NCBI GenBank assembly: GCA_036266195.1
Contig: DATANP010000599.1
Span: 1-59,081, forward strand
Length of the DNA: 59,081 bases
Direction of reading: 5' to 3'
From: Thermoanaerobaculia bacterium
Lineage (GTDB): Bacteria; Acidobacteriota; Thermoanaerobaculia; Multivoradales; UBA5704
Under the pieces are notes generated by a model. That model ran no database searches, was not told the origin of the DNA, and saw only the letters and a list, made by a program, of their open reading frames with translations. Shown one piece after another: positions 1,334-36,695 of this stretch. Numbering within the stretch: the first letter of the stretch is position 1; each line of letters opens with the position of its first letter. The position numbers and the translations under genes were made by a program.

Positions 1334-1337
1334 GCGC

Positions 1338-1583: not shown

Positions 1584-1593
1584 AGGAAGAACG

Positions 1594-2531: not shown

Positions 2532-2534
2532 GGC

Positions 2535-3701: not shown

Positions 3702-3716
3702 TCCTGGAGACACGCC

Positions 3717-4538: not shown

Positions 4539-4915
4539 GACGCCTCGCGGATCCTCCGTATCTCGCGTTCCCCTTCCGCGTGAGCGACAGCGGGCCGGAG
4601 CTTTCCGACCGCAGCCGCCACCTGCGGGAGCAGATCGAGCAGGTGCTGTTCACCAATCCCGGGGAGCGCGTGTTCCGGCCGGACTTCGGCGCGGGCATCC
4701 GCACCCTGATCTTCGAGCCGAACACCTCGCCGCTGTGGACGATCACGCGCAAGCGGCTGATCGCTTCGCTGGCGGATGCCTTGAAGGGCGAGGTCGATCC
4801 GCGCAGCCTCACGATCGACGTCACCGGCGAGGAAGAAAAGGTTTTCGTCAACATCGCGTACACGCTCGCGACGCTCGGCCATACCGAGCAGCAGCGCTTT
4901 TCGGTGAGCGCCTGA
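4535..4915 (+). CDS. GPW/gp25-family baseplate wedge protein
   Basis: LAFPFRV...HLREQIEQVLFTNPGERVFRPDFGAGIRTLIFEPN is the gp25/GPW signature. ATGA overlaps the spike stop. The track ORF 3878-4915 is in frame, but only the distal part is coding. Confidence 0.9.
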   Translation: MRRLADPPYLAFPFRVSDSGPELSDRSRHLREQIEQVLFTNPGERVFRPDFGAGIRTLIFEPNTSPLWTITRKRLIASLADALKGEVDPRSLTIDVTGEEEKVFVNIAYTLATLGHTEQQRFSVSA

Positions 4916-4925
4916 GGAGGCGGCC

Positions 4926-17757: not shown

Positions 17758-19034
17758 GATTTCACTGCATCGGGATGAATTGGCAGGACTACAGTGAAGT
17801 AGGAACGCCCTTCGTCGAACTCAAACCGAGGCTCCGGTGAACCGTTGGCCGCCATGGCCCGGAAGATCTTGGGAATTCCGGTACTGCGGGTCTCTGCGAG
17901 CTTCAGCTCCTTGAGCAACTCGCCGATGCGCCGGTTCCGGGCAGGAACCTGAGGGATGCGGCGTCCGGGCGCGAAGTCCTCCGTCTTGAGACCGGGTACC
18001 GGGCCTGGGTAGCTGGTTATCACCAACTCGGTAGGGTAGAGATAGACCTTGGTAGGCTGTTCCGCCCGATAGTCGCGGTGGTGGACGGCATTGACAACCG
18101 CCTCCTCGATGGCAGCAAAGGGGTAGGCATCCCAGGTTGTTGCCTCCGGTCGATCGGGATGCTTGCGCACGAACTGTCCCACCAGAGTGCGCAAAACTCC
18201 GAGGCAGTCGCGCACCTGACGGTGAACAGGGCCCCGGAAGATGCGCTCTTCGAGGATGTCGCCGCCTGCGTCATCTTCGAACCGGACGACGTCAATCCGG
18301 GCACCGGGAAAATGACGATCCGGATCATCGCTGAAGAAAAGAAGGGCGACGTTGCGCGGCGCCTCATGGCCATTCATTCGGTAGACGAGTTGCATGGCCC
18401 GGTACATCTCCCGATCGTCGGGCTCGTCAATGAGGGCGCTGCCGACTTCCTTCAAGAGCTCGCGGACGAGAGTGGAACGCAGGTCGTACATGTCGAATCG
18501 CGGAGCCGGCTGGTCGTCGAACGGCACCCAGCGGGTCATCTGCAGGAGCTCCGTCAGCACGGTGCCTCTCGCTTCGACGGTCTTCGAGCCGAGACGGACC
18601 CAGAAGCGGCGGTCTCCTGCCCGCGCTCCCGGCAGACTGTGCGGCCGGTTGAAGCTGCCGTGAGCCCAGACGGCCAGAATGTGCCGGCCATCTACGACCT
18701 CGTGGGAAAGGACGGGCTGATAGACAGGATCCATCCGCTGGCAGTTGCCGCGGATCCAGCGCTGGATCCGCTCCAGGGATGACGGATCGAGCCCTTTCGG
18801 GGGCAGTTGGGCGACGCCGTCCTTCTCCTCGACCCCGAGGATGATGTAGCCGCCGTTGACGTTGTAGTAATCGTTCGCGAAGGCGCAAATGGTCTCCAGA
18901 ACCTGCTGGGCTGTCGGGCCCTCGTTCCAACTGCTCTTGAATTCGACGCGAGCGGCCTCGACCCCACGGCGATAGAGGAGGTCGTAAACCGAAATCGGCA
19001 GAGCGCTGGTGGGAACCGCGCCTTCAGTCTCCAT
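17754..19034 (-). CDS. AlbA_2 (Schlafen-type) DNA/RNA-binding domain plus HATPase_c_4-like C-terminal domain protein
   Basis: RVEFKSSWNEGP...ICAFANDYYNVNGGYIILGVEEKDG is AlbA_2. EEAVVNAVHHRDY...ARNRRIGELLKELKLAETRSTGIPKIF is the C-terminal ATPase-like/wHTH module of RecG-like putative regulators. GGAGAA lies 11 nt upstream of ATG. Confidence 0.85.
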   Translation of the reverse strand: METEGAVPTSALPISVYDLLYRRGVEAARVEFKSSWNEGPTAQQVLETICAFANDYYNVNGGYIILGVEEKDGVAQLPPKGLDPSSLERIQRWIRGNCQRMDPVYQPVLSHEVVDGRHILAVWAHGSFNRPHSLPGARAGDRRFWVRLGSKTVEARGTVLTELLQMTRWVPFDDQPAPRFDMYDLRSTLVRELLKEVGSALIDEPDDREMYRAMQLVYRMNGHEAPRNVALLFFSDDPDRHFPGARIDVVRFEDDAGGDILEERIFRGPVHRQVRDCLGVLRTLVGQFVRKHPDRPEATTWDAYPFAAIEEAVVNAVHHRDYRAEQPTKVYLYPTELVITSYPGPVPGLKTEDFAPGRRIPQVPARNRRIGELLKELKLAETRSTGIPKIFRAMAANGSPEPRFEFDEGRSYFTVVLPIHPDAVKS

Positions 19035-20060: not shown

Positions 20061-20083
20061 GGCAATAGGATACCTCGAAAGTG

Positions 20084-20108
20084 CCGGGGAGCGCGGGTGC
20101 GCCCCCCG
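20084..20108 (-). terminator. GC-rich imperfect hairpin downstream of the isoamylase stop (weak intrinsic-terminator candidate)
   Basis: CCGGGGAGCGC-GGGT-GCGCCCCCCGG pairs imperfectly. On the minus strand it is followed only by a short TTT. Confidence 0.3.
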
Positions 20109-20122
20109 GTCCATCGACCTGG

Positions 20123-22720
<2,598 letters not shown>

Positions 22721-22733
22721 GATGGGATCCTCC

Positions 22734-22778
22734 TGTTGCCGCAATTCGAAGCGGCTCAAATTCTGGACAGGCTACTTT
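22734..22778. repeat. Copy 1 of a ~45-bp conserved element (R element) containing a hairpin GCCGC-AATTCGAA-GCGGC
   Basis: Aligns by eye to 30516-30559 with 6 substitutions and 1 indel. See findings. Confidence 0.7.
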
Positions 22779-22813
22779 AGCCCTTCCCTCTCCTCTTCGC
22801 CCCGGTCGCCGGG

Positions 22814-23719
22814 GTGGGGCCGGAGTATGATCTGCGGATGCGATCGGGCCTGAACCTGGACGAAATGGACCTCTATGCGGGGATCGCCGACGCCCGTCTC
22901 CAGGTGGACGAGTTCCACTTTGGCCGCGGCATCGCCTTGTCCCGCACCTTTGCTCATCTCTCCGCTCCCTTTCTCGCGGGATTCCTGCCGCGGCCCGCCC
23001 GGTATCTCGGGGATGCCGCTGTGTTCGAGCCCAAGAGTTTCGACATCCTGGCGCAGCTCCATATTCCCGAGGATGCCGTTCCACTGGAAGGTCTGGACCG
23101 GTTGAACACGGTCTGGTGGCTGGCGCTGCTTCTGCGGCTGCGGACCACGCCGCACCTGAGCGTGGTGGGGTTGTCGAGCGAGCCGTTCGGAGGAGACCCG
23201 AGAGCCTGGCGGGGCGCCGGTTTCTGGCCGGTCGAGGCGGAGCCCCGCCGCGTCGAGCTGGCTCCCGGAGCCCGGGGCGAGATCACCCGGGAGGACCTGG
23301 AGTGGGTGGCGCGCTGTTGGATTCCCGCCGGCCGCCTGATGAGGGAGCGCGAGGACCTCCACAAGGCGGTCCGCAACTTCGACCGGAGCTGCTTCGCTCC
23401 CGGTCCGGCCGACGCCCTTCAACTCCTCTGGGCCTCGCTCGCCAGTCTCTTCCTTCCCGACGAGGAAGACGACGGCAGCCGCCTTATCTCAAACCTGGCG
23501 ACCTTCCTGGAGATCCCCGCCGCGGAGCGCGCCGCCTTCCTGGACAGCGCGACCGATCTCTTGGATGCCCGGCTGGCCTCGCTCGAAGGCGCCATCGGCG
23601 ACCTGGAGGAGCCGGTTGCCAGGACCTGTGGGCTGGTCCGACAGACGCTGACCCGGATCTTCGACAACGGCTACGTGCCGACGATCCCGGAGCTGGAGGC
23701 GGGACTCCAGGCACATTGA
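22814..23719 (+). CDS. Hypothetical protein (301 aa; alternative start ATG 22838)
   Basis: Long ORF with non-shadow-like composition (helical, Leu/Glu/Asp-rich C-terminal half). No motif recognised. Confidence 0.5.
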   Translation: MGPEYDLRMRSGLNLDEMDLYAGIADARLQVDEFHFGRGIALSRTFAHLSAPFLAGFLPRPARYLGDAAVFEPKSFDILAQLHIPEDAVPLEGLDRLNTVWWLALLLRLRTTPHLSVVGLSSEPFGGDPRAWRGAGFWPVEAEPRRVELAPGARGEITREDLEWVARCWIPAGRLMREREDLHKAVRNFDRSCFAPGPADALQLLWASLASLFLPDEEDDGSRLISNLATFLEIPAAERAAFLDSATDLLDARLASLEGAIGDLEEPVARTCGLVRQTLTRIFDNGYVPTIPELEAGLQAH

Positions 23720-23732
23720 GATGGAGGACGCC

Positions 23733-23761
23733 TTGACTCGGAAGGCGTCGCTGTTCATAAT
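23733..23761 (+). promoter_or_regulatory. Sigma70-type promoter TTGACT-N17-CATAAT for paralogue A
   Basis: -35 at 23733-23738, 17-nt spacer, -10 at 23756-23761. The whole element is conserved at 30558-30586. Confidence 0.55.
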
Positions 23762-26700
23762 CTCTGACTCCTATCCCCTGAAGCATCTGAATCCGGTCTG
23801 CTGATCTCGTCCATTTCGGGATTGAAACCTGTGATTCGAGCGCGGCGCTCGTAGGGAAGCTCTTTCTCTCTCCGGGTCGCGGCCGAAGGAGAGAGCGTCC
23901 TTGGCGATGACGCGTCGTGTGGCCGTACGCGCGGGAACCTGTCTTGCGTTCCTCGTTCTGCTGGGCGCTCCCTTGCTGGGCGGCCGTTTCCGGCTGTCCA
24001 ACCCGGAGTCTCCGGTCTACTATCGCTACGCCGTCATCGCGGGCGAGAGGATCCAACTCGTCGAGGGAACCCGGGTTGCCGGCAATCTCCACTCGAACGG
24101 CGATGTGAGCACCGCCTCCGGCGTCCTGATCGACGGCGACGCTTCGACGGTAGGCAAGATCACGGGCCCGGGAACCGTAACGGGAACGAAGAGAGAAGGG
24201 GCTCCGTCCGTCTCCCTGCCCCGGCTGGCGACCGCCGCCGAGCTTCAGGCGATGGCTGACCGGAAGCTCCAGGGAGATCAGACGTTCAACAACGCGGTCG
24301 TCGACGACGTCATCTTCGTCAACGGCCGGGTGAGGATCCAGGGCAGCCTCGGCGGCGCCGGCACCATCCTGGCGACCGGCGACGTGACCCTGGAATCCAG
24401 CGCGGCCGTGCCGGGTCCGGGGACGCGGATCTCCGTGGTCTCCCTGGGATCGATCGCTCTGGCCGAGGGCCGCGCGTTTCGCGGCATCCTCTATGCCGGC
24501 CAGGACGTGCAGGCCGGCCGCGGCGCGCAGCTCGAAGGCGTCGTGCTGGCCGGCCGCCGCGTTCATCTCAATGGAGACGTCCGGCTGACCTTTGTCAACT
24601 TCGACAGCGGCCCGCCGGTCATTACCTTGCTGTCGCCCGCGGCAGGCGCCTTCCTTTCCACGGCGATCCCGCAGATCACGCTCTCGTTCTCCGACGACCT
24701 CTCGGGCGTGGACCCGTCGACGGCGTCCTTCCTTCTCGACGGCCAGGACCGCACGGCCGGGGCCACCGTGAGCGCGACGGGCTTGAGCTTCCAGCCCGCG
24801 CAGCCGCTCGCTGACGGTCTTCATAAGATCGTGGTGCGGATCTTCGATCATTCGGGCAAGGAAGCTTCCGCGGAATTTACCTTCACCACCGACACGGTCG
24901 CGCCCGCGCTGCGGATCGCCTCCCCCGGCCCGACTGTGGATGGCGACTCCACGCCGGCTGTTACCGTTGAATTCTCCGACGCCGCCTCGGGCATCGATCC
25001 GGAGACCCTGGAGGTCGAGATCGATGGCGTGTCGATTCAGAGCTCGTGCGTCCTGTCCGAGAGCTCCGCTGTGTGCGAGCCGCCCGAGCTGGCGGAAGGC
25101 CGGCACACGATCGTCGCGGAGGTCGCCGATCGCGCGGGCAACCGTACGACCGCGGAATCGAGCTTCGACATCGTGCTCGACCGCAAGCCGCCCGCGCTGC
25201 GGATCGTCTCTCCCTCGGTCGGCCTGACCGTCGGCGACGCCACGCCTGAGATCGTCCTGTCGTACTCGGATGCGGGCTCCGAGGTCGATCTGGCCACGCT
25301 GAGCGTGGTCCTCGACGAGCAGGACCTGACGGCGGGGTGCGACGTGCAGCCGAATAAGGCCACCTGTGAGCCGCCGCCTCTGGCCGCCGGACTTCACATC
25401 CTGAAAGCCGCGATCGCGGACCGGAGAGGATTCCGAGCGGAACGCGAGCGGGTCTTCGAGATCTCGCTGCAGCTTGCCTTGATGATCGAAGCGCCGGCCC
25501 AGGGCGAGCTGACCCAGGCCTCCACCGTGGAGGTCTCGGGCACGATCTCTCCCGAGGCCGACTCGGTCTCGGTGAACGGAATCGAGGGCGTCCCCCAGAA
25601 CGGCATCTTTGTCATCGCGGATGTGCCCCTGCACGAGGGCGGCAACACCCTGACCGCGATCGCGCGCAGCGAGGGCGGCGGCATCGGAACGGCCACTGTG
25701 ACAGTGGTGCGGGATACCGCGGCGCCGAGGGTCGTCATCGCCGCGCCCCATGCCGGATTGATCACGACCTCGCCGCAGATCGCGGTCACCGGCGAATACG
25801 TCGATCCCTTATCGAGCAACGCCGACGTGGCTCCGCCGGTGGTGAAGGTCAACGGCTTCGTGGCAAAGACGGAGCTGCGGACGTTTTCCTATGACAACCT
25901 GCTCCTGCAACCTGGAGAAAACCTGATCCGCGTGACCGTGACGGACACGGCGGGCAACGAGGGCTCGGCCGAAGTGTCGGTGACGCTCGTGCAGGACGCG
26001 GCGCAGCAGATCGAAAAGCTTTTGGGAGACGACCAGTCGGGGCCGGTCGGACAGAGGTTGAAAGATCCGCTGGTGATGCGGCTCCGCGATGTGATCGGCA
26101 ACCCGCTGCCGGGCCGGCGCGTGCTGTTCGAGGTAACGCGTGGAGGCGGGCAGGTGGTGGCCGGAGGAGAGGAAGCGAGCAAGCTGTCGGTTTCAACCGA
26201 CGAGCAGGGGCTTGCCCGGGTGGACTTCTTCCTGGGCCGCCGGGCCGGCGCGGGCAACCATGAAGTGACGGTGACCTCGGCCGGCTTCCCGGGAGAGATC
26301 ACCTTCTCCGCCTCGGCAACGGTGAGCGAGCCGCGCCGCATCGTGCGAGCGGCCGGAGACGATCACACGGGAGCGATGGTCGCGGCGGTGTCGGAGCCTT
26401 ATCCCAAGCCCCTGTTGACGCAGGTTTTCGATGGTCAGGGCAACCCGGTGCAGAACGTGCCGGTGACCTATCGCGTGATCTCGGGCGGCGGCTCCTTCGC
26501 CGGGGCCGAGACCGTGACCGAGGTCACCAACGGCCAGGGGCTCGCCTCGGCGACCTTCACTCTGGGGCCGCAGCCGGGAAACATGATCAATCTGGTCGAG
26601 GCAGGCTTCGATGGATTGGCCGAGCTGCCGGTAACCTTTGCGATCACCGGCATGGTGCTGGGCCCCGAGGAGGAGACCGCGATCGTCGGCTTGGTGCTGG

Positions 26701-27412
26701 ACAACCAGGACGATCCGGTTCCAGGCGTTACTCTGGCCGTCGATCACACAGACCTCACGGCGGTCTCCGACGCGCAGGGCCGCTTCCGTATCGCCGGGGT
26801 TCCTGTGGGAACGGTCAAGCTCAAGGTCGACGGCAAGACCACGAGCCGGCCCGGAACCTGGCCGTATCTGGAATTCCATTTCACCACCATCAGCGGCGTG
26901 GACAACAGTCTGGGGATGCCGATCCGTCTGCTTCCGATCGATGTCGCGGGCGGGAAGCTGGCTGGCGGTCCGGAAGAAGTCGTGATCCAGATGAAGGGAG
27001 TCCCCGGAGCGACACTGACAGTGGCGCCCAATTCAGTGACCTTCCCCAATGGATCCAAGGTCGGCACCGTCTCCTTCACCCAGGTCCATGGCGACAAGGT
27101 GCCGATGATCGCGCCGCTGGGCTCGAACTTCACGGTGGCATTCACGGTCCAGCCGCCGGGCACGCGCTTCGATCCTCCGGCGGTGGTGACGCTGCCAAAC
27201 ATCGGCCTGCCGCCGGGCTCCGAGGTGGATCTCTTCTCCTTCGATCACGACATCGGCGAGTTCCTCTCGGTCGGTACCGCGACGGTGACGCCGGACGGCC
27301 TGCTGTTGCGCTCGAACCCGGGCACCGGCATCAGCAAAGCCGGCTGGGGCGGTGGGGTTCCTCCACCGCCGCCGTTATCCGACGCTTGCCAACCGGGCGC
27401 TTGTACGACCTG
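23733..27412 (+). repeat. Copy 1 of a ~3.7-kb direct duplication (promoter, leader and N-terminal ~1160 codons)
   Basis: The protein alignment with 30558-34243 is roughly nine in ten identical by eye, and becomes almost identical in the last ~280 codons before the junction. Confidence 0.9.
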
Positions 27413-28940
27413 CGTCGATGGGCGGCCGGTGTCGAAGTGCGGGCCTTGTGAGCGCTGCGATGGGAGCCAAGGTTGTGTGATCGCAAGCCTGGATGGATTG
27501 CAGATATTTGCGGATTCGCTTGAAGGTGAGGAGACCAGCGAATTCGGCCTGCTCTCTTCCTCTGCCCGCCTTGCAGCCCGTGCCACGACCGCGGCGCGTA
27601 AGATAACAGTTGGTCTCAATGTCCCGATACAGTTCAGGGCAGTGCCTCCGGACAAGTGTTGCACTTCAGTAAGTTATAGATGGGACTTCAAGGATGGAGG
27701 ATCTTCCACGGATCAAAATCCGAAACACACGTTCAAGCAGAGAAAAACATATCCCGTCGAGCTGGTCGCCACCTGCTCCAGCTGCCCCGCGACCAAGACC
27801 GAAACCATGGACGTCGAAGTCATTGCATCCATTCAGATCAACACGGTCATATCGAATCAATTCCCAGGTTCGCGCTGTAACCTGTTGACAGCAACCTCGG
27901 TCCCGGGATCCAACAATCCGATGCTCATGGGAACTCTCGGAGGAGCCTCTACGGAAGTTCTCCTGGAATCCAAGGTCGTTCCCAAGGAAGCTCTTGCGCT
28001 GGCACGGATCGGCGTGCGGAAGGTTGGTTCCAGTAGCCCGATATTCGAAGAGAAGGTGTCGAGTTTGACGAGCCCGACTTCTCTACGTTTCGATGCCCAG
28101 CCCGGCCGTTTGCGTTATGAGGTGGTGGCAGGCTTCGATGACAACTCGTCGAGCGGCCTACAGGATTCCGAGATCGACCAGGTCTTCCCACACAAGATCC
28201 GCGTGGTGACTCCGCAGGATGTCACAGAGTCCCTGGAGGGTATCGATGGCGATGAAATCCTGCTGGTAGGGGCCGCGCAGGACCTGACCGACTATTTCCT
28301 TGCAAAGACGGCAGGTGTGGTCAATGCAAGCCTGGTTCCAACGACCATTGCGGCGAGTGATCTGGCTCATCCTCTCGGTGCCTCATGGACTTCGGCTTGC
28401 GTGGCCACCACCGTTAGAGCTGCTTATGGACCAACATCGCCTGTGGCAGACAAGCTGGCCAATTCGGAGAAGGTGGAGGATTTAGTGAAGGCTGCTCTCA
28501 GCAGCCACGCAACGAGCATCAAGGCATTCTTCAGCTCGCCGAGCAGTCCGAATACCGCTCTATTTCCGGCGGTACTTGGAGGAACTTGGACATGGTCTGG
28601 TTCCGTCCGTTCTGCAGGAGACTGGGCGAAAGATGGAGAGATGGAAATCGCAGGAGCCTTCGGGGCCGTCAATCTGAAAGGAGAGATCAGAGAGGTCGAG
28701 ATCCGTAAGTCGGACTTGCAAGTCATGAAAATTCTCTATACCGGAGAGCTTGCCGAGTCCTACGATTTCGATATAACGAAGCCGCCAATCCCCATTCTGG
28801 GACTTTCCTTTGACGTCAATCGGGATGGAGCTACCATGCAGGCTGGTCACACAACAATCAACCCGGGCGGGCAAGTGTTCAGGACGAGCGTCAACTTCTC
28901 GAGAATTGCTGGCTCAGAGTTTGACTTTGAGATTCCATAA
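23901..28940 (+). CDS. Large secreted Ig-like-repeat protein, paralogue A (1679 aa), with unique C-terminal ~510 aa
   Basis: TTG 23901 (GGAGA 8 nt upstream) or ATG 23907. Signal peptide RRVAVRAGTCLAFLVLLGAPLLG. Beta-helix-like N-domain, three tandem ~100-aa Ig-like repeats (PPVITLLSP...DTVAPALRIASP...), further beta-sandwich domains, a CarboxypepD_reg-like segment (VGLVLDNQDDPVPGVTLAV...GRFRIAGVPVG) and a PKD-like segment (SYRWDFKDGGSSTDQNPKHTFKQRKTYPVEL). Confidence 0.85.
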   Translation: MAMTRRVAVRAGTCLAFLVLLGAPLLGGRFRLSNPESPVYYRYAVIAGERIQLVEGTRVAGNLHSNGDVSTASGVLIDGDASTVGKITGPGTVTGTKREGAPSVSLPRLATAAELQAMADRKLQGDQTFNNAVVDDVIFVNGRVRIQGSLGGAGTILATGDVTLESSAAVPGPGTRISVVSLGSIALAEGRAFRGILYAGQDVQAGRGAQLEGVVLAGRRVHLNGDVRLTFVNFDSGPPVITLLSPAAGAFLSTAIPQITLSFSDDLSGVDPSTASFLLDGQDRTAGATVSATGLSFQPAQPLADGLHKIVVRIFDHSGKEASAEFTFTTDTVAPALRIASPGPTVDGDSTPAVTVEFSDAASGIDPETLEVEIDGVSIQSSCVLSESSAVCEPPELAEGRHTIVAEVADRAGNRTTAESSFDIVLDRKPPALRIVSPSVGLTVGDATPEIVLSYSDAGSEVDLATLSVVLDEQDLTAGCDVQPNKATCEPPPLAAGLHILKAAIADRRGFRAERERVFEISLQLALMIEAPAQGELTQASTVEVSGTISPEADSVSVNGIEGVPQNGIFVIADVPLHEGGNTLTAIARSEGGGIGTATVTVVRDTAAPRVVIAAPHAGLITTSPQIAVTGEYVDPLSSNADVAPPVVKVNGFVAKTELRTFSYDNLLLQPGENLIRVTVTDTAGNEGSAEVSVTLVQDAAQQIEKLLGDDQSGPVGQRLKDPLVMRLRDVIGNPLPGRRVLFEVTRGGGQVVAGGEEASKLSVSTDEQGLARVDFFLGRRAGAGNHEVTVTSAGFPGEITFSASATVSEPRRIVRAAGDDHTGAMVAAVSEPYPKPLLTQVFDGQGNPVQNVPVTYRVISGGGSFAGAETVTEVTNGQGLASATFTLGPQPGNMINLVEAGFDGLAELPVTFAITGMVLGPEEETAIVGLVLDNQDDPVPGVTLAVDHTDLTAVSDAQGRFRIAGVPVGTVKLKVDGKTTSRPGTWPYLEFHFTTISGVDNSLGMPIRLLPIDVAGGKLAGGPEEVVIQMKGVPGATLTVAPNSVTFPNGSKVGTVSFTQVHGDKVPMIAPLGSNFTVAFTVQPPGTRFDPPAVVTLPNIGLPPGSEVDLFSFDHDIGEFLSVGTATVTPDGLLLRSNPGTGISKAGWGGGVPPPPPLSDACQPGACTTCVDGRPVSKCGPCERCDGSQGCVIASLDGLQIFADSLEGEETSEFGLLSSSARLAARATTAARKITVGLNVPIQFRAVPPDKCCTSVSYRWDFKDGGSSTDQNPKHTFKQRKTYPVELVATCSSCPATKTETMDVEVIASIQINTVISNQFPGSRCNLLTATSVPGSNNPMLMGTLGGASTEVLLESKVVPKEALALARIGVRKVGSSSPIFEEKVSSLTSPTSLRFDAQPGRLRYEVVAGFDDNSSSGLQDSEIDQVFPHKIRVVTPQDVTESLEGIDGDEILLVGAAQDLTDYFLAKTAGVVNASLVPTTIAASDLAHPLGASWTSACVATTVRAAYGPTSPVADKLANSEKVEDLVKAALSSHATSIKAFFSSPSSPNTALFPAVLGGTWTWSGSVRSAGDWAKDGEMEIAGAFGAVNLKGEIREVEIRKSDLQVMKILYTGELAESYDFDITKPPIPILGLSFDVNRDGATMQAGHTTINPGGQVFRTSVNFSRIAGSEFDFEIP

Positions 28941-28941
28941 G

Positions 28942-30384
28942 GTGAGTGTCTTGAATAGATTTCCTGCCGGCGTATTCCTTCTGTTGCTTCTCTTCAGCGG
29001 CACGATCGCGCGCGCCGATGATCCGCGGAAAGAGGGCGATCCGGAGGGCGAGCGGTTGTGTCGCTCCATGTTGCACTTGGGCTCTCCGAATGAGCTCTTG
29101 AAGGTGGTTGCAGACAAGGGTGCCGAAGGCTGGACTGCCATGATTTCGGCGCGCCATGCGGCCGCTCCGGCAAAAGGCAAGGGCGACGACTGCCAGTTGG
29201 CAACGCTGCGTGTCGTTGATGCGTTTCGGGGAGCGGTGGAGGTCGCGAAGAAGGGACCGCGTGAGTTTGCGGAACAAGTCGCTCTCCTGCTGAGACTGCG
29301 AGATGCCATGGCGACAGATTCTACCTACGCCAGTCTCGTTTTGGCCGACGTTGCGAACAGAGCCGTCGTCGTGATGTTTGCGGTGAGACTCTGGGAAGAC
29401 TGGACTGTCACTGAGGATCAATCTGTAACACTTGCCGCATTGCGCAGGTTTCATGTCGACAGTACGCTCCTTGCCCGAGTGATGCAAAAGGAGGGTGTTT
29501 CGGTACCTGCCCCAGTCGACATGGATGAGCGCGAGAGATTCTTCAGCCTCCTGGAAAAACTACCGAGAGCGACTGGGGACACTGTTGCCGGCTTCGCCGG
29601 GGCAGGTGTTGTCCAGCTCCTGGAGCGTCGGGACATTGCTCTGCTGTTCCTGAGACTGATCAGAACGGATTACGATCTGCATGGAACCCTTCCGCTGACC
29701 GCCGAATACGTTCGCCGAGTTGCAAAACCCAAGGTCGTGCCCGGCTATGGGGACGTGAAGACAGCTCTTGGCTTTGGCGCCGCGGAGTGGAAGAGGTACG
29801 GCTCGGAACGGAATCGTATCGGCCCTGGAGACGAGGCTTCGGTAGGGCGGTTGCTGGCCGAAGTAGAGAACGGCCGGATCGACGCAAAGCTCGGCTTGGA
29901 TCTCTCGAGGAAAGCTTACCTCGAGGAATATCGTCGCTTCCTTCGACTCGACTTGGCGGTTGCCAAGAGTGAGAAGGGGCAGGAGCTGGAGCTCGTCTTG
30001 CACAACCAGGGGCCTGATCTCCTTTGGATCGCAGCCGTAGAGGTAGCCAACAAGAAGGGTATGGATGCGAGTCAGATCGCTGGCGAGCTCAACATACATA
30101 GTCAAGATGCCGGACCGACGGAGCTATGGCTTGTCGCAAGGCGGCTTCCTCCTGAATCCGGAACTGGCATTCAGAAGCTGTTTGTCAAGGCTGGTGAAAG
30201 TGTGAGTCAACGGCTCGCGCTGACCGGCGTAGATACGCTTGGCCGTGCGGATCTAAAAGCGACAGATGTGTGGGTGCGTTATTTCCCATTTTGGGAATGG
30301 GCAGAAGGGAGTGAAGCGATTTCCAAAGACGTCGGCCTGGAGGCCTCGGCGCGGGTGGAAGCGGAGAAACCGAAGGAGCAGTGA
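28942..30384 (+). CDS. Signal-peptide protein (480 aa) cognate to paralogue A (candidate immunity/accessory)
   Basis: GTG 28942 lies 1 nt after the stop of A. N-terminus is VSVLNRFPAGVFLLLLLFSGTIARADD. Mostly helical composition with no recognised motif. Confidence 0.6.
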   Translation: MSVLNRFPAGVFLLLLLFSGTIARADDPRKEGDPEGERLCRSMLHLGSPNELLKVVADKGAEGWTAMISARHAAAPAKGKGDDCQLATLRVVDAFRGAVEVAKKGPREFAEQVALLLRLRDAMATDSTYASLVLADVANRAVVVMFAVRLWEDWTVTEDQSVTLAALRRFHVDSTLLARVMQKEGVSVPAPVDMDERERFFSLLEKLPRATGDTVAGFAGAGVVQLLERRDIALLFLRLIRTDYDLHGTLPLTAEYVRRVAKPKVVPGYGDVKTALGFGAAEWKRYGSERNRIGPGDEASVGRLLAEVENGRIDAKLGLDLSRKAYLEEYRRFLRLDLAVAKSEKGQELELVLHNQGPDLLWIAAVEVANKKGMDASQIAGELNIHSQDAGPTELWLVARRLPPESGTGIQKLFVKAGESVSQRLALTGVDTLGRADLKATDVWVRYFPFWEWAEGSEAISKDVGLEASARVEAEKPKEQ

Positions 30385-30395
30385 GAAGAACAGCG

Positions 30396-30500
30396 ATGAG
30401 AGCCTTCATCTCGGGTATTGGAAGTCTCAGCCTTCTGGTCCACCTTGCGGCCTGGAGCGAATCGAGCGGGCCAAGCCAGGAGAACAAAACGGGAATCATT
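30396..30500 (+). pseudogene. Truncated remnant (signal-peptide region only) of a homologue of the 35958-36695 gene
   Basis: MRAFISGIGSLSLLVHLAAW aligns with MKTLISHLGSLSLLIHLAAA. At nucleotide level ggaagtctcagccttctggtccaccttgcggcc aligns with ggaagcctgagccttctgatccatctcgcggcc. The open frame then runs through the R element and promoter, so the 117-aa track ORF is not credible. Confidence 0.5.
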
Positions 30501-30515
30501 GAATGTGCGTCAGAT

Positions 30516-30559
30516 TGTTGTCGCAATTCGAAGCGACGCAAATTCGGGATAGTCTATTT
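30516..30559. repeat. Copy 2 of the R element (hairpin GTCGC-AATTCGAA-GCGAC)
   Basis: Aligns with 22734-22778. The two stem differences are compensatory (C:G becomes T:A). Confidence 0.7.
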
Positions 30560-30586
30560 GACTCGCGAGCCGTCGCTGTCTATGAT
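30558..30586 (+). promoter_or_regulatory. Sigma70-type promoter TTGACT-N17-TATGAT for paralogue B
   Basis: -35 at 30558-30563, 17-nt spacer, -10 at 30581-30586. Homologous to 23733-23761. Confidence 0.6.
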
Positions 30587-33500
30587 CTTCGTCGCCCATC
30601 CAGTATGCATCGGAATCAGGTTTGGTGCTCTCGTCTTTTTCGAGATTGAACCTGTTCGGCGATTTGAGCGTGGCGCTCGTAGGGAAGCTCTGTCTATTTC
30701 TTCCGTTGCACGGTTGAAGGAGAAGTGCCCTTGACGATGATGCGTCGTGCGGTCGTACGGGCAGGAGCCTGTCTTGCGTTCCTCTTCCTGCTGAGCGCCC
30801 CGTTGCTGGGCACCGGTTTCCGGCTCTCGAGCCCGGAATCCGCGGTCTACTACCGGTACGCCGTGATCGCGGGCGAGCGGATCCAGATCGTCGAGGGGAC
30901 CCGGATTGCCGGCAATCTCCAATCGAATGGCGACGCGAGCACCGCCTCCGGCGTCGTGATCGACGGCAACGCCTCGGCCGTGGGCAAGATCACGGGCCCC
31001 GGCACCGTGACGGGAACGAAGAAGGAAGGAGCCCCGTCCGTCTCCCTGCCCCGGCTGGCGACCGCCGCGGAGCTCCAGGCGATGGCCGACCGGAAATTCC
31101 AGGGCGATCAGATATTCAATAACGCGGTCGTCAACGACGTCATCTTCATCAACGGCCGGGTGAAGATCCAGGGGAGCCTGGGCGGCGCCGGCACCATCCT
31201 GGCGACCGGCGACGTGACCCTGGAAGCCAGCGCGGCCGTGCCGAGTCCGGGGACACGGATCTCCGTGGTCTCCCTGGGATCGATCACTTTGGCCCAGGGC
31301 CGCTCGTTCCGGGGCATCCTCTATGCCGGCCAGGACGTGCAAGCCGACCGTGGCGCGCAACTGGAAGGTGTCGCGCTGGCGGGCCGCCGCGCCAATCTCG
31401 GAGGAGACGTTCGGCTGACCTTTGTCGACTTCGACAGCGGCCCGCCGGTGATCACCCTGCTGTCGCCCCTAGCAGGCGCTTTCCTTTCCACGGCGACCCC
31501 GCAGATCACCCTCTCGTTCTCGGACGATCTCTCGGGTGTGGACCCGGCGACGGCGTCGTTCCTCCTCGACGGCCAGGACCGCACGGCCGGAGCCACGGTG
31601 AGCGCGACGGGCTTGAGCTTCCAGCCCTCCCAACCGCTCGCCGAAGGTCTCCATGGGATCAGGGTGAGGGTCTCCGATCACTCGGGCAAGGAAGCCTCTG
31701 CTGAGTTTTCCTTCACCATCGACACGGTCGCCCCCGTGCTGCGGATCACCTCCCCGGGCCCGATTGTCGAGGGCGACTCCACGCCGGCTGTTGTTCTCGA
31801 ATTCTCCGATGCCACCTCGGGTATCGATCCGGCGACCTTGGAGGTCAAGGTTGACGGCGCGTCGATCCGGGGCTCGTGCGCCGTGACCGCAAGCTCCGCC
31901 GTGTGCGAGCCGCCGGAGCTTGCGGAAGGCCAGCACGCGATCACAGCGATGATCGCCGACCGCGCCGGCAACCGCTCGACGGCGGAGTCGAGCTTCGAGA
32001 TTGCGCTGGACCGCGTTCCGCCGGTGCTGCGGATCGTCTCTCCCCCGGCCGGTCTCATCGTTGGCGACGCCACGCCCGCGATCGTCCTGTCATATTCAGA
32101 TGTGGGGTCCGGAGTCGATCTCACTACGCTGAGCATCATCCTCGACGGGCAGGATCTGACAGCCGGGTGTGACGTGCAGCCGGACAGGGCCACCTGTGAG
32201 GCGCCGCCTCTCGCCACCGGCCTCCATACCTTGAAGGCCGCGATTGCGGACCGGAGAGGATTCCGTGCGGAACGCGAACGGATTTTCGAGGTGTCGATGC
32301 AGCTTTCCCTCGTGATCGAAGCGCCGGTCCAGGGCGAGCTGACACAGGCCTCCACCGTGGAGGTCTCCGGCACGGTGTCTGCCGAGGCCGACTCGGTCTC
32401 TGTGAACGACATCGAGGGAGTCCCGCAGAACGGCGTATTTGTGATCGCAGACGTGCCCCTGCACGAGGGCGGCAATACCCTGACCGCGATCGCCCGCAGC
32501 GAGGGTGGCGGCATCGGCACGGCCACCGTGACCGTAGTGAGGGATACTTCGGCGCCGAGAGTCGTCATCGCCGCGCCCCGCGCCGGGCTGGTGACGACCT
32601 CGCCGCAGATCGCGGTCACCGGCGAATATGTTGATCCATTGTCGAGCAACGCCGACGTGGCTCCGCCGGTGGTGAAGGTCAACGGCTTTGTTGCGAGGAC
32701 GGAGCTGCGGACGTTCTTCTATGACAACCTCCTCCTGCAACCCGGAGAGAACCTCATCCGCGTGACCGTCACGGACACGGCGGGAAACGAAGGCTCGGCC
32801 GAGGTGTCGGTGACGCTCGTGCCGGACGCGGCGCAGCAGATCGAAAAACTCTTGGGAGATAGTCAGTCGGGACCAGTCGGCCAACGTTTGAAAGACCCGC
32901 TGGTGGTGCGCCTCCGTGACGTGGTCGGAAACCCGCTGCCGGGCCGGCGCGTGCTTTTCGAGGTGACCCGTGGAGGTGGGCAGGTGGCGGCTGGAGGCGA
33001 GGAGGGGAGCAAGCTGTCGGTTTCGACCGACGAGCAGGGTCTGGCCCGAGTGGACTTCTTCCTGGGCAGCCGGGCCGGCGCGGGCAACCACGAGGTGACG
33101 GTGACCTCGGCCGGCTTCCCTGGAGAGGCGACCTTCTGCGCCTCGGCAGCGGTGAGCGAGCCGCGCCGCATCGTGCGGGCGGCCGGAGACGATCACACGG
33201 GAGCGATGGTAGCGCCAGTGTCGTCGCCCTACCCGAAGCCCCTGTTGACGCAGGTTTTCGACGATCAGGGCAACCCGGTGCAGAACGTGCCGGTGACCTA
33301 TCGCGTTGTGTCGGGCGGAGGCTCCTTCGCCGGGGATGAAACGGTGACCGAGGTCACCAACGGCCAGGGGCTCGCGTCGGCGACGTTCGCCCTGGGGCCG
33401 CAGCCCGGAAACGTGATCAATCTGATCGAGGCAGGCTTCGATGGGCTCGCCGAGCTGCCGGTGACCTTCGCGATTACCGGTGTGATGCCGGGGCCCGAAG

Positions 33501-34243
33501 AGGAGACCGCGATCGTCGGCCTGGTGCTGGACAATCAGGATGATCCGGTTCCAGGTGTGACGCTGGCCGTCGATCACACGGACCTCACGGCGGTCTCCGA
33601 CGCGCAGGGCCGCTTCCGCATCGCCGGGGTTCCCGTGGGCACGGTCAAGCTCAAGGTCGACGGCAAGACCACAAGCCGGCCTGGGACCTGGCCTTATCTG
33701 GAGTTCCACTTCACCACCATCAGCGGCGTGGACAACAGTCTGGGAATGCCAATCCGACTGCTGCCGATCGACGTCGCAGGTGGGAAACTGGTTGGCGGTC
33801 CGGAAGAAGTGGTGATCCCGATGAAAGGCGTCCCCGGGGCGACGCTCACTGTGGCGCCCAACTCGGTTACGTTCCCGAATGGAGCCAAGGTCGGTACGGT
33901 CTCTTTCACGCAGGTCCATGGAGACAAGGTGCCGATGATCGCGCCCATGGGCTCGAACTTCACGGTGGCCTTTACAGTGCAGCCGCCGGGCACGCGCTTC
34001 GATCCACCGGCGGCCGTGACCCTGCCGAACATCGGCCTGCCGCCGGGCTCAGAGGTCGACCTCTTCTCCTTCGATCACGACATCGGCGAGTTCCTCTCGG
34101 TCGGCACCGCGACAGTGACACCGGACGGCCTGCTTCTGCGTTCGAATCCGGGCGTCGGCATCAGCAAGGCTGGGTGGGGCGGCGCGGTTCCGCCACCGCC
34201 GCCGCTGACGAATGCTTGTGAGCCTGGCTCCTGTACAAAATGT
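30558..34243 (+). repeat. Copy 2 of the ~3.7-kb direct duplication
   Basis: See copy 1. Confidence 0.9.
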
Positions 34244-35950
34244 GATCCCGGGCCGAAACCGATCGTCGAACCTCCGGACATCAAGGCACTCGCCAACGGG
34301 GAGGAAGAGTCAGTCTTCGTTCAGATCGGCGAACCGGTTCGGTTTTCGGTGACATCGAACACGACCCTTCGCCAGGCAGAAGACACCTGCGCTCTTCCAA
34401 AGTGGGCTTTCGGTGACGGAGCAGCGGAGGAAGGAAACGGCCTTTCTCACGCCTACAAAGAACCCGGCGAGTACGAGGCGAGGGTGGCCGTGCAATGTGG
34501 GAGCTGCCAGAACTCCAGCGATACCGATCAGGTCAAAGTGGTCGTGGCTAAGCCGTCGATCAAGCAGGCGGAATACAGCGGCGATGGTTTCCAGGCGGTT
34601 CGCCAGGATTCGGGGAGCCCCTACGATACTCCACACTGGCAGGACAACACGCCGAAGCTCGACGACGATGCGGCGGACTCCGGCGATCGCCGCTTTCCGG
34701 TGAGCTATTTGAAAGGCAGCACGATTGAGATGTCGCTCGAAATCGAGACGGAAGGCCAGGGCTTTGGCAATGCTGAGGGTAAGACGAAGGTCCGCGGCCA
34801 CGGCTCTCGAGGGATCGAATTTCCGGCTACCGCCGCAAGCGTCCAGGGCGCGCGCATCGTCGCTGACGGTCTGCGTGCTGCCAGCGCTCTGCCGAATACG
34901 ATCGATCTGATCGATCCCTTCGAGGTGAGCTGGGAGATCTCGTTTGACGACGGCGAGAACTGGATCGATCTGGGAAAGACGGACAACCGCATCTACGTCA
35001 CATTGGCCGAGCCGATCAATGCCTCCTTGTTCGAGACCGTGCTCGACATCGGTTGCCGTAACGCCAAGGGCTCCTCTGAGCCAGACCAGGCCTTCGACAG
35101 GATCTGGCAAGAATTCAAAGACCGGAGCGTCCTGCGCAAGGCGATCGATGGCTTCAACAAACCCGATGGGCAGGTGATGCGCTATTGGTTCGACCGCGGA
35201 AGCCCCCTCAATGTTCCTGTCTACTCACAGTGCAAGCTGATGAGCCAAATGATCAATCCTGAGCCTGGCGACGCGCAGCTCAATGGCGTAGGTAGCTGCG
35301 GCGCGTGGGCGAACCTGCTCCATAAAATCGCCTCTGCGCTCGGCATCGGCGGCTCCGAGGTGGTCCAGGTTCAACCGGATCAAACGGTTCATCCGGAGGC
35401 GCAGTTGTTCTTGGTCAAGAATTGGAACTTCGGTAAACACATACAACCTGGAAGCGATAACACCTGTGAGTCGGTACGAGCCGGAGATGATCTCCCGTCT
35501 CCTGCAGGGAGGCCCACCTGCATAACTCCTGGCCGGAACGGCATCCTCGACACGCAGGTGGCGGCAACCGACGTAGAAGCAGAAGGAGTGCTTGCCTCAT
35601 TGAATCAGAGATTCCCTTTCCTCCTTTTCGATGAAGAGGACCGCCCTGATTTCGGATTTCTGCTAGGAGATGCAGCCGATCAGCCAGGAGCTCCGGGCCA
35701 ACTGACACAGAATCCTCCAGGCTTCTTCGCAAACCATTTCATCGTCAGGCGCAATGGGAAGATCTACGATCCATCCTATGGTAACGGGCCTTACGAGAGC
35801 GAGGTGGCATGGGAGCAGGACTCTGTAGCCGGCATCATGACGGTGAGCAAAGCGCAACCTCCCATTCCCCTGGCCAGGAAGAAGGGTCCGACCAAAGAGT
35901 TGGTGTATACCACGTCAAATCTACCCGAGCTCAATCCTGACGAGGATTAG
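30731..35950 (+). CDS. Large secreted Ig-like-repeat protein, paralogue B (~1739 aa), with unique C-terminal ~580 aa including a possible papain/transglutaminase-fold Cys-His-Asp domain
   Basis: TTG 30731 is positionally equivalent to the start of A; the track gives GTG 30725, and ATG 30737 is also possible. Same architecture as A up to ...GWGGAVPPPPPLTNACEPGSCTKC. After that come a PKD-like segment (KWAFGDGAAEEGNGLSHAYKEPGEYEARV) and GVGSCGAWANLL...FFANHFIVRRNGKIYDPSYG. Confidence 0.85.
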   Translation: MTMMRRAVVRAGACLAFLFLLSAPLLGTGFRLSSPESAVYYRYAVIAGERIQIVEGTRIAGNLQSNGDASTASGVVIDGNASAVGKITGPGTVTGTKKEGAPSVSLPRLATAAELQAMADRKFQGDQIFNNAVVNDVIFINGRVKIQGSLGGAGTILATGDVTLEASAAVPSPGTRISVVSLGSITLAQGRSFRGILYAGQDVQADRGAQLEGVALAGRRANLGGDVRLTFVDFDSGPPVITLLSPLAGAFLSTATPQITLSFSDDLSGVDPATASFLLDGQDRTAGATVSATGLSFQPSQPLAEGLHGIRVRVSDHSGKEASAEFSFTIDTVAPVLRITSPGPIVEGDSTPAVVLEFSDATSGIDPATLEVKVDGASIRGSCAVTASSAVCEPPELAEGQHAITAMIADRAGNRSTAESSFEIALDRVPPVLRIVSPPAGLIVGDATPAIVLSYSDVGSGVDLTTLSIILDGQDLTAGCDVQPDRATCEAPPLATGLHTLKAAIADRRGFRAERERIFEVSMQLSLVIEAPVQGELTQASTVEVSGTVSAEADSVSVNDIEGVPQNGVFVIADVPLHEGGNTLTAIARSEGGGIGTATVTVVRDTSAPRVVIAAPRAGLVTTSPQIAVTGEYVDPLSSNADVAPPVVKVNGFVARTELRTFFYDNLLLQPGENLIRVTVTDTAGNEGSAEVSVTLVPDAAQQIEKLLGDSQSGPVGQRLKDPLVVRLRDVVGNPLPGRRVLFEVTRGGGQVAAGGEEGSKLSVSTDEQGLARVDFFLGSRAGAGNHEVTVTSAGFPGEATFCASAAVSEPRRIVRAAGDDHTGAMVAPVSSPYPKPLLTQVFDDQGNPVQNVPVTYRVVSGGGSFAGDETVTEVTNGQGLASATFALGPQPGNVINLIEAGFDGLAELPVTFAITGVMPGPEEETAIVGLVLDNQDDPVPGVTLAVDHTDLTAVSDAQGRFRIAGVPVGTVKLKVDGKTTSRPGTWPYLEFHFTTISGVDNSLGMPIRLLPIDVAGGKLVGGPEEVVIPMKGVPGATLTVAPNSVTFPNGAKVGTVSFTQVHGDKVPMIAPMGSNFTVAFTVQPPGTRFDPPAAVTLPNIGLPPGSEVDLFSFDHDIGEFLSVGTATVTPDGLLLRSNPGVGISKAGWGGAVPPPPPLTNACEPGSCTKCDPGPKPIVEPPDIKALANGEEESVFVQIGEPVRFSVTSNTTLRQAEDTCALPKWAFGDGAAEEGNGLSHAYKEPGEYEARVAVQCGSCQNSSDTDQVKVVVAKPSIKQAEYSGDGFQAVRQDSGSPYDTPHWQDNTPKLDDDAADSGDRRFPVSYLKGSTIEMSLEIETEGQGFGNAEGKTKVRGHGSRGIEFPATAASVQGARIVADGLRAASALPNTIDLIDPFEVSWEISFDDGENWIDLGKTDNRIYVTLAEPINASLFETVLDIGCRNAKGSSEPDQAFDRIWQEFKDRSVLRKAIDGFNKPDGQVMRYWFDRGSPLNVPVYSQCKLMSQMINPEPGDAQLNGVGSCGAWANLLHKIASALGIGGSEVVQVQPDQTVHPEAQLFLVKNWNFGKHIQPGSDNTCESVRAGDDLPSPAGRPTCITPGRNGILDTQVAATDVEAEGVLASLNQRFPFLLFDEEDRPDFGFLLGDAADQPGAPGQLTQNPPGFFANHFIVRRNGKIYDPSYGNGPYESEVAWEQDSVAGIMTVSKAQPPIPLARKKGPTKELVYTTSNLPELNPDED

Positions 35951-35957
35951 TACAACG

Positions 35958-36695
35958 ATGAAAACGTTGATTTCACACCTTGGAAGCCTGAGCCTTCTGA
36001 TCCATCTCGCGGCCGCACCCGTCGTCGCCGAGACGTCAGCGGCCGGCCCGGCAGCGGGGATGGAGCTCCTTTCGGGTATCGCGTACTGGAGCGGGTCTCA
36101 GGTTCAAGTTCTGATGCTGTCGCGCCCGAGAGTTCCAACGGTCCCTCTGAAAGAGGCCAAGGAGTCGCCTCGCGACCCCTTCACCGTGCTGAGCGAGCAG
36201 CCCGGATTGTATGAAGGAACGCCACTGGTTCTGGTCGAATCAACGCTGGAGGCGGGCCCGGAGAAGACTTTATGGAGGGGGCGTGCGAAAGAGCTCAAGT
36301 TTCAGACGATCGAGGCCTGGTTTGATGCTGACGTGGTTCGCGACGCAGTTACGGGAGCGATCTATGTCGTTGTTCTCCAAGGCGAGCCGGGCAGTCTTGA
36401 ACTCCGAGTGTTTCCTGTAGCGAGACCCAGCAGCAATACATCGCTCGATACAGTGCCCGAAACTCTCGTGCCACGGGCGAAGTTCCTGATCTCTCTCTGG
36501 TCCGACGAGTTTTGCGACAGCCGCGAGTTGGACGTCAGCTCCGACCGGGCTGGATTGTTGCTCACGATGAAAGCCACCGATTCCAAATGCCGTCAGATCG
36601 GTTATCGCTTCGATCCGGAGAGCGATACCTGGACGCAGGTGTCCCTGAAGCGAGTCGAGCCGTCCAAGCCGAAGGAAAAGAATGGGAATGGTTGA
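35958..36695 (+). CDS. Signal-peptide protein (245 aa) cognate to paralogue B (candidate immunity/accessory)
   Basis: Starts 7 nt after the stop of B. Signal peptide is MKTLISHLGSLSLLIHLAAAPVVAETS. No recognised motif. Confidence 0.65.
   Translation: MKTLISHLGSLSLLIHLAAAPVVAETSAAGPAAGMELLSGIAYWSGSQVQVLMLSRPRVPTVPLKEAKESPRDPFTVLSEQPGLYEGTPLVLVESTLEAGPEKTLWRGRAKELKFQTIEAWFDADVVRDAVTGAIYVVVLQGEPGSLELRVFPVARPSSNTSLDTVPETLVPRAKFLISLWSDEFCDSRELDVSSDRAGLLLTMKATDSKCRQIGYRFDPESDTWTQVSLKRVEPSKPKEKNGNG

Follow-up and report, generated by a model that had tools for sequence, protein, structure and literature searches.

Exchangeable C-terminal cassettes on a duplicated giant exported protein of a Thermoanaerobaculia bacterium: a likely polymorphic effector/immunity locus

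A stretch of DNA of 59,081 nucleotides (nt) from a Thermoanaerobaculia bacterium of the Acidobacteriota (assembly GCA_036266195.1, contig DATANP010000599.1; guanine plus cytosine (G+C) content 66.7%), referred to here as the window, contains two neighboring genes, A and B, whose giant products share most of their length and end in different C-terminal cassettes, each followed by a different small gene. This arrangement raises the question of whether a constant scaffold carries exchangeable toxins with their own immunity proteins, as an earlier inspection of the letters alone (the sequence-only reading) had proposed, or whether the variable ends are adhesins, exo-enzymes or the cargo of a nearby injection system. 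The toxin/immunity proposal was supported on comparative grounds: the scaffold was found with unrelated C-termini, the downstream genes co-varied with them, the G+C content dropped in the cassettes and a remnant of a displaced cassette was present. We consider it likely, though well short of certain, that the locus is a tandem pair from a largely acidobacterial family of polymorphic effector/immunity systems, whose cassettes would encode envelope-acting effectors with exported partners.

The duplicated genes and their constant scaffold

A single blastn alignment joined positions 23733-27374 to positions 30558-34204 with 86.9% identity over 3652 nt, and proteins A and B were 88.4% identical across residues 1-1170. 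The ~3.7-kb direct duplication and the estimate of nine identical residues in ten made by the sequence-only reading were thus both borne out. Identity ran through the motif GWGG[GA]VPPPPPL..AC.PG.CT, which ends at ~27412 in A and ~34243 in B as that reading had placed it, and collapsed afterwards. However, the proteins were not unrelated immediately after the motif, as had been claimed. Both continue with a Cys-rich linker and a divergent PKD domain (27378-27830 in cassette A and 34208-34549 in cassette B, both on the + strand), and therefore the unrelated parts, here called the tips, measure only 369 amino acids (aa) in A (27831-28937, + strand, 56% G+C) and 466 aa in B (34550-35947, + strand) instead of the ~510 and ~580 aa proposed. 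The last ~280 codons before the junction had been described as almost identical; this held at the protein level for ~260 codons, which contained 11 non-synonymous codon differences, and failed at the nucleotide level, where third-position divergence was 0.23-0.34, the same as elsewhere. Recent gene conversion or homogenization over these 260 codons was therefore ruled out, and their near-identity reflects strong purifying selection on an old duplication.

Gene A (23907-28940, + strand) encodes 1677 aa from its likely ATG, with the open reading frame (ORF) opening at TTG 23901, and gene B (30737-35950, + strand) encodes 1737 aa from its likely ATG, with the ORF opening at GTG 30725. The order of parts is the same in both: a hydrophobic signal-peptide-like segment, a beta-helix-like N-domain, an Ig-like array, CarboxypepD_reg, ZU5, the linker, PKD and, at the end, tip A or tip B. 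All signal-peptide calls in this work come from a crude heuristic. The exact left edge of the duplication is a promoter-like site in each copy, TTGACT-17-CATAAT in A (23733-23761, + strand, 10 of 12 matches) and TTGACT-17-TATGAT in B (30558-30586, + strand), and the Shine-Dalgarno sequence GAAGGAGA and a leader of ~145 nt lie upstream of the ATGs at 23907 and 30737. These features agree with the sigma70-type promoter, ~140-nt leader and signal peptide that had been read in both copies. A regulatory RNA in the leaders was considered and rejected, as there was no Rfam match, no departure of folding from shuffled sequences (z of 0.56 and 0.14) and no nucleotide match in related loci. The beta-helix-like N-terminal domain proposed for residues ~30-235 (23988-24605 in A and 30818-31435 in B) was retained as a tentative assignment on sub-threshold matches to bactofilin and to ice-binding/antifreeze beta-solenoids (E 0.015-0.4).

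Pfam detected Ig-like domains, CarboxypepD_reg and PKD in both proteins and gave no match at residues ~1005-1160, the last constant domain before the cassette. An AlphaFold2 model of this domain from A (26913-27359, + strand; predicted local distance difference test (pLDDT) 86.5) was searched against the PDB with Foldseek, and all of the top 15 matches were ankyrin ZU5 domains (E 8e-5, probability 1.0, TM-score 0.5-0.6). The corresponding domain of B (33743-34189, + strand) is 94% identical to the modeled one; the domain of A carries the motifs VH.DKVPM, FDPPA and SFDHD.G.F. At the sequence level, ZU5 matches agreed with one another, although they were weak and below significance (E 0.16 to Pfam ZU5, seen in two of 13 members; E 0.24 to ankyrin-3 in the PDB). 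As modeled, the last constant domain of the scaffold has a ZU5 fold. Junction A, GWGGGVPPPPPL (27342-27377, + strand), lies on and after its last strand, and junction B, GWGGAVPPPPPL (34172-34207, + strand), follows the ZU5 domain of B. One copy reads GWGGG and the other GWGGA at this point, in each case followed by five prolines.

Cassette exchange and co-variation with exported partners

Relatives were sought with a profile of the CarboxypepD_reg+ZU5 module against one genome for each of 185,579 species, and 281 stretches with the module were confirmed. Locus-level counts (L001-L077) cover the best 77 of these 281. Most of the 77 loci belong to Acidobacteriota (Thermoanaerobaculia, Holophagales, Vicinamibacteria, Candidatus Multivoradales and Candidatus Angelobacter), and a few were assigned to Nitrospirota, Planctomycetota, Myxococcota and others. 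Residues 925-1165, used as a query, brought up 38 proteins of 43-60% identity, in which the module is common up to K.GW and divergence is complete thereafter, and tandem paralogues occurred in five further loci. The expectation that the scaffold would be found with other C-termini in relatives was thus confirmed, the module preceding many unrelated C-termini among the 281 stretches. The N-terminal domain of residues ~30-235 was present in 12 of the 77 loci, other members starting differently (for example with CBM96 in P0065); therefore the N-terminus of the stalk is variable as well.

The junction itself occurs in two types among these loci, GWHCGGNP..G[TS]...C..C..C (44 copies) and GW[GH]G.xPPPPP (approximately 28 copies, including those of the window); both run into a Cys-rich knot, and FDHD and DKVPM are invariant in both. 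Counted over 79 copies, the last ZU5 strand reads GWHC in 44, GWGG in 17 and GWHG in 10. The ZU5 domain of PIDD cleaves itself at a His-Phe-Ser motif in its C-terminal part. The scaffold domain shares its predicted fold with the ZU5 domains of ankyrin, UNC5 and PIDD, and the Trp-His-Cys found at the last strand of most relatives recalls the PIDD cleavage site; relatives ending in this way probably cleave themselves and release the effector, by analogy. Unlike PIDD, the window copies have Gly-Gly at the site, and their similarity to ZU5 is below significance in sequence. Because they do not have the His-Cys of most relatives, autoproteolytic release at the ZU5 junction appears doubtful for the window locus.

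Directly behind the two giant genes lie partner A (28942-30384, + strand, 480 aa) and partner B (35958-36695, + strand, 245 aa), both putative cognate immunity proteins with signal-peptide-like starts. They begin 1 nt and 7 nt, respectively, past the stops of A and B, the spacing that had been read from the letters. Co-variation was measured in 66 systems whose C-terminus is complete and whose downstream ORF measures 60-600 aa. The downstream ORFs were similar in 45 of 86 pairs with similar C-termini compared to 1 of 2059 pairs with dissimilar C-termini (Fisher p = 6e-68), a statistic that is inflated by the common ancestry of some loci and to that extent speaks less strongly for an effector/immunity family. 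C-termini and downstream genes therefore do co-vary across homologous loci. A signal-peptide-like start was found by the crude rule in 55 of the 66 partners, and several of the remaining ones visibly have one too, in keeping with the exported partners that had been proposed.

Both signs of exchange that were looked for, a compositional shift and a displaced module, were found. The cassettes of the window have 56-59% G+C compared to 67% in the stalk. Throughout the 66 systems the C-terminus was lower in G+C than the scaffold, and so was the partner in 60 of them, with a median gap to the stalk of 6.5 points for the C-terminus and 6.2 points for the partner. L001, the closest relative, matches the window at 90% identity in the ZU5 module and at 80% in the giant neighbor downstream, compared to 67.6% over 577 aa in the C-terminus with tip B and 66.5% in the partner. 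At the orthologous locus L002, two stalk genes end in C-termini that differ again from these.

The displaced module is a degenerate remnant of partner-B type (30396-30500, + strand), in which a 5' signal-peptide piece is joined to a piece of the 3' end. Its peptide reads MRAFISGIGSLSLLVHLAA, compared with MKTLISHLGSLSLLIHLAA, and blastn aligned it at 86% identity over 35 nt to the 5' end of partner B and at 79% over 47 nt to the 3' end. A 44-nt repeat follows (30516-30559, + strand), 84% identical to 22734-22777, and marks an older left end of the duplicated unit. The repeat at 22734-22777 adjoins the start of an isoamylase gene, and 955 nt of copy A (22778-23732) have no counterpart in copy B. 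The partner-B-like remnant and the 44-nt repeat behind partner A suggest that an older cassette of B type once stood in a tandem duplicate and was displaced by cassette A. No intact or further orphan cassette was found within the window. The coordinates first given for the unit were kept and extended, since the unit also takes in 30396-30559 (remnant and repeat) and the neighboring gene at 36809-57550. These comparisons between loci show a modular exchange of cassettes between scaffolds.

The tips, their partners and what they might otherwise be

Tip B consists of a beta-sandwich and a transglutaminase-fold core. Its AlphaFold2 model (pLDDT 89.8, predicted TM-score 0.90) matched transglutaminases 3 and 2 best in the PDB (Foldseek E 5e-5, probability 0.99), and 25 homologues were found on varied scaffolds. 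C250, H396 and D407, encoded at 35297, 35735 and 35768 on the + strand, are invariant across the 26 tip-B sequences; the Cys sits at the N-terminal end of a helix, and the His and the Asp lie on strands. As in transglutaminases 2 and 3, the beta-sandwich comes first and the Cys-His-Asp core second; unlike Tox-TGase and the animal transglutaminases, tip B gave no significant match to Pfam Transglut_core (best E in the family 0.08, in one homologue, below threshold) and contains long family-specific inserts. Because of the fold match and the invariant Cys-His-Asp, tip B is predicted to be a new family of the transglutaminase/papain-like enzyme superfamily, not a simple lectin or adhesin module.

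No homologue of tip A was found in a word-indexed protein search; an exhaustive representative search gave 139 representative homologues, always C-terminal. Their scaffolds are ZU5 stalks, TSP3 or FN3-type proteins and short secreted proteins, and the homologue P0064 is window protein A itself (1677 aa). The conserved motifs are V.SDQ.PG.ECN.LP, an EF-hand-like D.N.DG loop, LTHP.GA.W, D.YDF.Y and VQAG[YF]PTLG. Tip A is a widespread, conserved module of ~360 aa. At the sequence level, neither tip and neither partner had a significant match in Pfam, NCBIfam or the PDB.

The partners follow the tips beyond the scaffold family. In L082, L081 and L008 the next gene behind the tip-A homologue encodes a protein related to partner A (E 1e-17, 4e-14 and 4e-5, respectively), and a profile of these three matched partner A alone among 92 partner-type sequences (92.8 bits). 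Likewise, when the partners that follow tip-B homologues in L083 and L084 were combined in a profile, its sole matches were partner B and the L001 orthologue of partner B. Metagenomes scanned with partner A yielded no relative. The two profiles are specific, and each tip is thus accompanied by a partner family of its own across unrelated scaffolds, with the exceptions given below.

Where a short secreted protein carries tip A or tip B, the putative toxin gene has the gene of an exported TPR protein immediately upstream, and L081 has a second pair 1.5 kb downstream, consisting of a DUF6973 protein and a 206-aa exported protein; the stretches concerned are L081 7373-9585, L081 2329-3999, L082 1725-3056 and L083 2311-4001. 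The upstream TPR proteins and the second pair suggest that arrays of effector/partner pairs exist outside the ZU5 stalk family.

The range of ends carried by the scaffold was surveyed with Pfam in 73 aligned C-termini, the two of the window and those of 71 relatives. PKD was present in 24 of them, DUF6973 in six, PLA2G12 and Peptidase_M15_3 in four each, prokaryotic phospholipase A2 (PLA2) in two, and 3D and Peptidase_M10 in one each; Laminin_G_3, which is lectin-like, and Big_2 were each found in four. HEAT repeats occurred in 12 of the 66 partners, and TPR and LRV partners were found too, with an LRV/HEAT partner beside a PLA2 tip and a TPR partner beside an M15 tip. Exported, tip-specific partners beside phospholipases and cell-wall hydrolases would fit self-protection against envelope-acting effectors.

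The same survey bears on the idea that the C-termini are variable adhesins which bind different surfaces or hosts, with the downstream proteins as co-receptors or anchors. The Ig-like, PKD and CarboxypepD_reg stalk is typical of adhesins, NCBIfam adhesin repeats matched weakly, a few relatives have Laminin_G_3 or Big_2 in their C-termini, and tip B and apparently also tip A open with a beta-sandwich. Against this stand the invariant Cys-His-Asp in the transglutaminase core of tip B and the clear enzymes (PLA2, M15, M10 and 3D) in many relatives; moreover, an adhesin has no need for a tip-specific exported partner, yet the partners co-vary with the tips. We regard adhesins as an improbable explanation of the locus.

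Enzymes might instead be displayed or secreted by the cell to remodel its own matrix or to digest external polymers, with the giant neighbor perhaps forming the matrix and the partner serving as inhibitor, chaperone or cofactor during export. ZU5 has been described in large bacterial surface proteins with adhesion modules together with lipases, glycohydrolases and phosphodiesterases, for which extracellular polymer remodeling was suggested (PMC3482391). The conserved, matrix-like TSP3/VWA neighbor points the same way, a transglutaminase fold could cross-link matrix proteins, and some tip-A homologues have no partner. One would not expect housekeeping enzymes, however, to be exchanged from one close relative or paralogue to another, to have foreign G+C in 66 of 66 systems, to evolve faster at the tips than both flanking genes or to keep a module-specific exported partner across unrelated scaffolds, and PLA2, M15 and 3D domains with exported helical-repeat proteins resemble known envelope-targeting effector/immunity pairs. 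Exo-enzymes of this kind are thus an unlikely account of the locus. Given the lectin-like or very long C-termini of a minority of relatives, an adhesin or exo-enzyme role keeps a small share of the probability for the family as a whole.

Several further observations weigh against an effector/immunity family. Tip A gave no Pfam or PDB match from which a fold or an activity could be assigned. The tip-A homologues P0065 and P0070 have no partner gene before the giant neighbor, the one in L007 is followed by an unrelated small lipoprotein, and the tip-B homologue P0055 has no co-directional downstream gene. The Laminin_G_3 and Big_2 C-termini belong here, as do the very long C-termini of some relatives (~1300 aa). 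Neither window copy has the His and nucleophile (Ser/Thr/Cys) of a cleavage site, no component for outer-membrane secretion or for import came to light, and the upstream genes are not conserved across the 77 loci, their largest cluster spanning 6 loci.

Neighboring genes, known systems and significance

Downstream of partner B lies a secreted giant protein of 6913 aa (36809-57550, + strand) with a signal peptide, many TSP3 calcium-binding repeats, five CarboxypepD_reg domains, Big_7 and VWA (Pfam). At its C-terminus is a soluble PAP2/vanadium-haloperoxidase-like domain; a membrane anchor formed by this domain was considered and rejected, since it contains no hydrophobic segment and resembles the soluble haloperoxidase type in sequence, and the protein has no transmembrane segment beyond the signal peptide. 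In 49 of the 56 loci that offered enough sequence, the stalk gene was followed at a distance of 0.1-4.3 kb by a homologue of its non-repeat N-terminus. Two adjacent genes in L078 encode the TSP3 protein and the haloperoxidase-like protein separately, and the short tip-A and tip-B proteins elsewhere have no giant neighbor. It is conceivable, at a low probability, that the stalk/effector gene or genes, the partner and the giant TSP3/VWA/haloperoxidase-like protein form one acidobacterial competition machine, with the giant as an extracellular platform or fiber that would carry the stalk proteins and take them to a target, and ZU5 as the release point of envelope-acting effectors.

On the other side of the duplication, positions 317-17210 hold the tail of a PVC-like extracellular contractile injection system cluster: Pvc16_N (317-1333), a CIS_tube-like protein (1594-2241), a Phage_base_V spike (3717-4538), DUF6519 (10833-13949) and a protein of 1083 aa with an N-terminal eCIS_core/DUF4157 domain (13959-17210), which could be cargo of the injection system. 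Between 4900 and 10800, ORFs in several different frames overlap. Next come a DinB-family protein (17227-17757, + strand), a Schlafen AlbA_2/HATPase_c_4 protein (17754-19034, - strand) and an isoamylase with CBM48 and CBM20 (20123-22759, - strand). A + strand ORF at 20081-22780 was dismissed as spurious, because the G+C content at third codon positions (GC3) favors the - strand. The ORF at 22814-23719 (301 aa) is coding-like (GC3 0.83) and present only upstream of copy A; it had no Pfam or NCBIfam match and no tblastn match in the 77 related loci.

Proteins A and B might be cargo of this injection system. Its Pvc16_N, CIS_tube, Phage_base_V and eCIS_core (DUF4157) genes lie 6.5-23 kb upstream, and such clusters often carry toxin genes at their end (Zhang 2012, PMC3482391). 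We find this scarcely credible for A and B, which have Sec-type signal peptides and no DUF4157 domain, from which the cluster is separated by three genes (DinB on the same strand, Schlafen-like and isoamylase on the opposite one), and for which no upstream gene is conserved in the 77 loci, the downstream giant being conserved instead. Because the upstream genes are not conserved, the injection-system genes are taken as a coincidental neighbor.

In the effector/immunity mechanism that we favor, both large proteins would be exported via a Sec-type signal peptide, and their long Ig-like stalk would end in the CarboxypepD_reg and ZU5 domains. Past ZU5 would come a horizontally exchanged cassette of Cys-rich linker, PKD, effector domain and a separate gene for the cognate exported protein. 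The latter would bind and neutralize the effector in the producer's own periplasm, and because neutralization would occur there, the expected target of the effectors would be the envelope of competing cells. Effector B would be a transglutaminase-fold Cys-His-Asp enzyme, and effector A the conserved module of ~360 aa. Release in the window locus, if any, would work differently from that in self-cleaving relatives, because the window copies have Gly-Gly where most relatives have His-Cys. We infer toxicity, immunity, the envelope target, self-cleavage and the delivery route.

Type II secretion or Sec-dependent polymorphic toxins were catalogued by Zhang, de Souza, Anantharaman, Iyer and Aravind in 2012 (PMC3482391), who knew transglutaminase domains as toxin heads and counted ZU5 among the self-cleaving processing domains; near the N-terminus of RHS/SpvB toxins, ZU5 was proposed to cut the stalk at its base. 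The family described here resembles the Sec-dependent toxins of that catalogue in its signal peptide, its constant N-terminus, its hypervariable C-terminal cassette with a downstream cognate gene and the lower G+C content of the cassette. Unlike that class, it has ZU5 as the last constant domain, directly before the effector, where HINT or VENN sit elsewhere, and an Ig-like stalk in place of RHS or filamentous haemagglutinin. It also differs in that nearly all partners look exported, a giant TSP3 neighbor is conserved and the family is concentrated in Acidobacteriota.

The CdiA-CT/CdiI systems share with it a giant exported stalk, a short demarcating motif, a swappable C-terminus with the immunity gene next to it, displaced remnants and a drop of G+C in the cassette. 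Unlike CdiA/CdiB/CdiI, Pfam found no two-partner secretion (TPS) domain, filamentous haemagglutinin (FHA) repeats or VENN motif in either full protein, and the genes called in the window included no CdiB. Most CdiA-CT toxins work in the cytoplasm, where their immunity proteins also reside, whereas the partners here look exported. Neither A nor B matched RHS or PAAR, unlike Rhs/YD-repeat toxins, nor DUF1020 (MAFB-N), unlike MafB. The view of the sequence-only reading that the scaffold is not that of CdiA, Rhs or MafB accordingly stood, the hallmark domains of all three being absent from A and B in the Pfam scan. Periplasm-acting type VI effectors (Tle/Tli phospholipases and Tae/Tai amidases) are guarded by periplasmic immunity proteins. 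The family is like them in combining phospholipases, peptidoglycan hydrolases and papain/transglutaminase-superfamily enzymes with exported, often helical-repeat, partners; in contrast to them, it comes without attached type VI genes, PAAR or VgrG, and the effectors are fused to a Sec-exported Ig-like stalk. No description of an Ig-stalk/ZU5/effector family was found in the searchable literature. The family fits the broad class of Sec-dependent polymorphic toxins with a distinct and seemingly undescribed architecture.

Acidobacteriota are among the most abundant soil bacteria, and to our knowledge almost nothing is known of how they compete. If our reading is true, the family gives them a large, diversifying arsenal of envelope-targeting effectors. 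It would supply two effector families without previous annotation, tip A (139 representative clusters) and tip B (transglutaminase fold), together with two new candidate immunity families, partners A and B. It would also put ZU5 in a new place and to a new use, marking off the exchangeable effector that follows, and the CarboxypepD_reg+ZU5 module ending in K.GW would provide a search handle for further effector/immunity pairs. The constant giant TSP3/haloperoxidase-like neighbor may point to the route by which the effectors are delivered.

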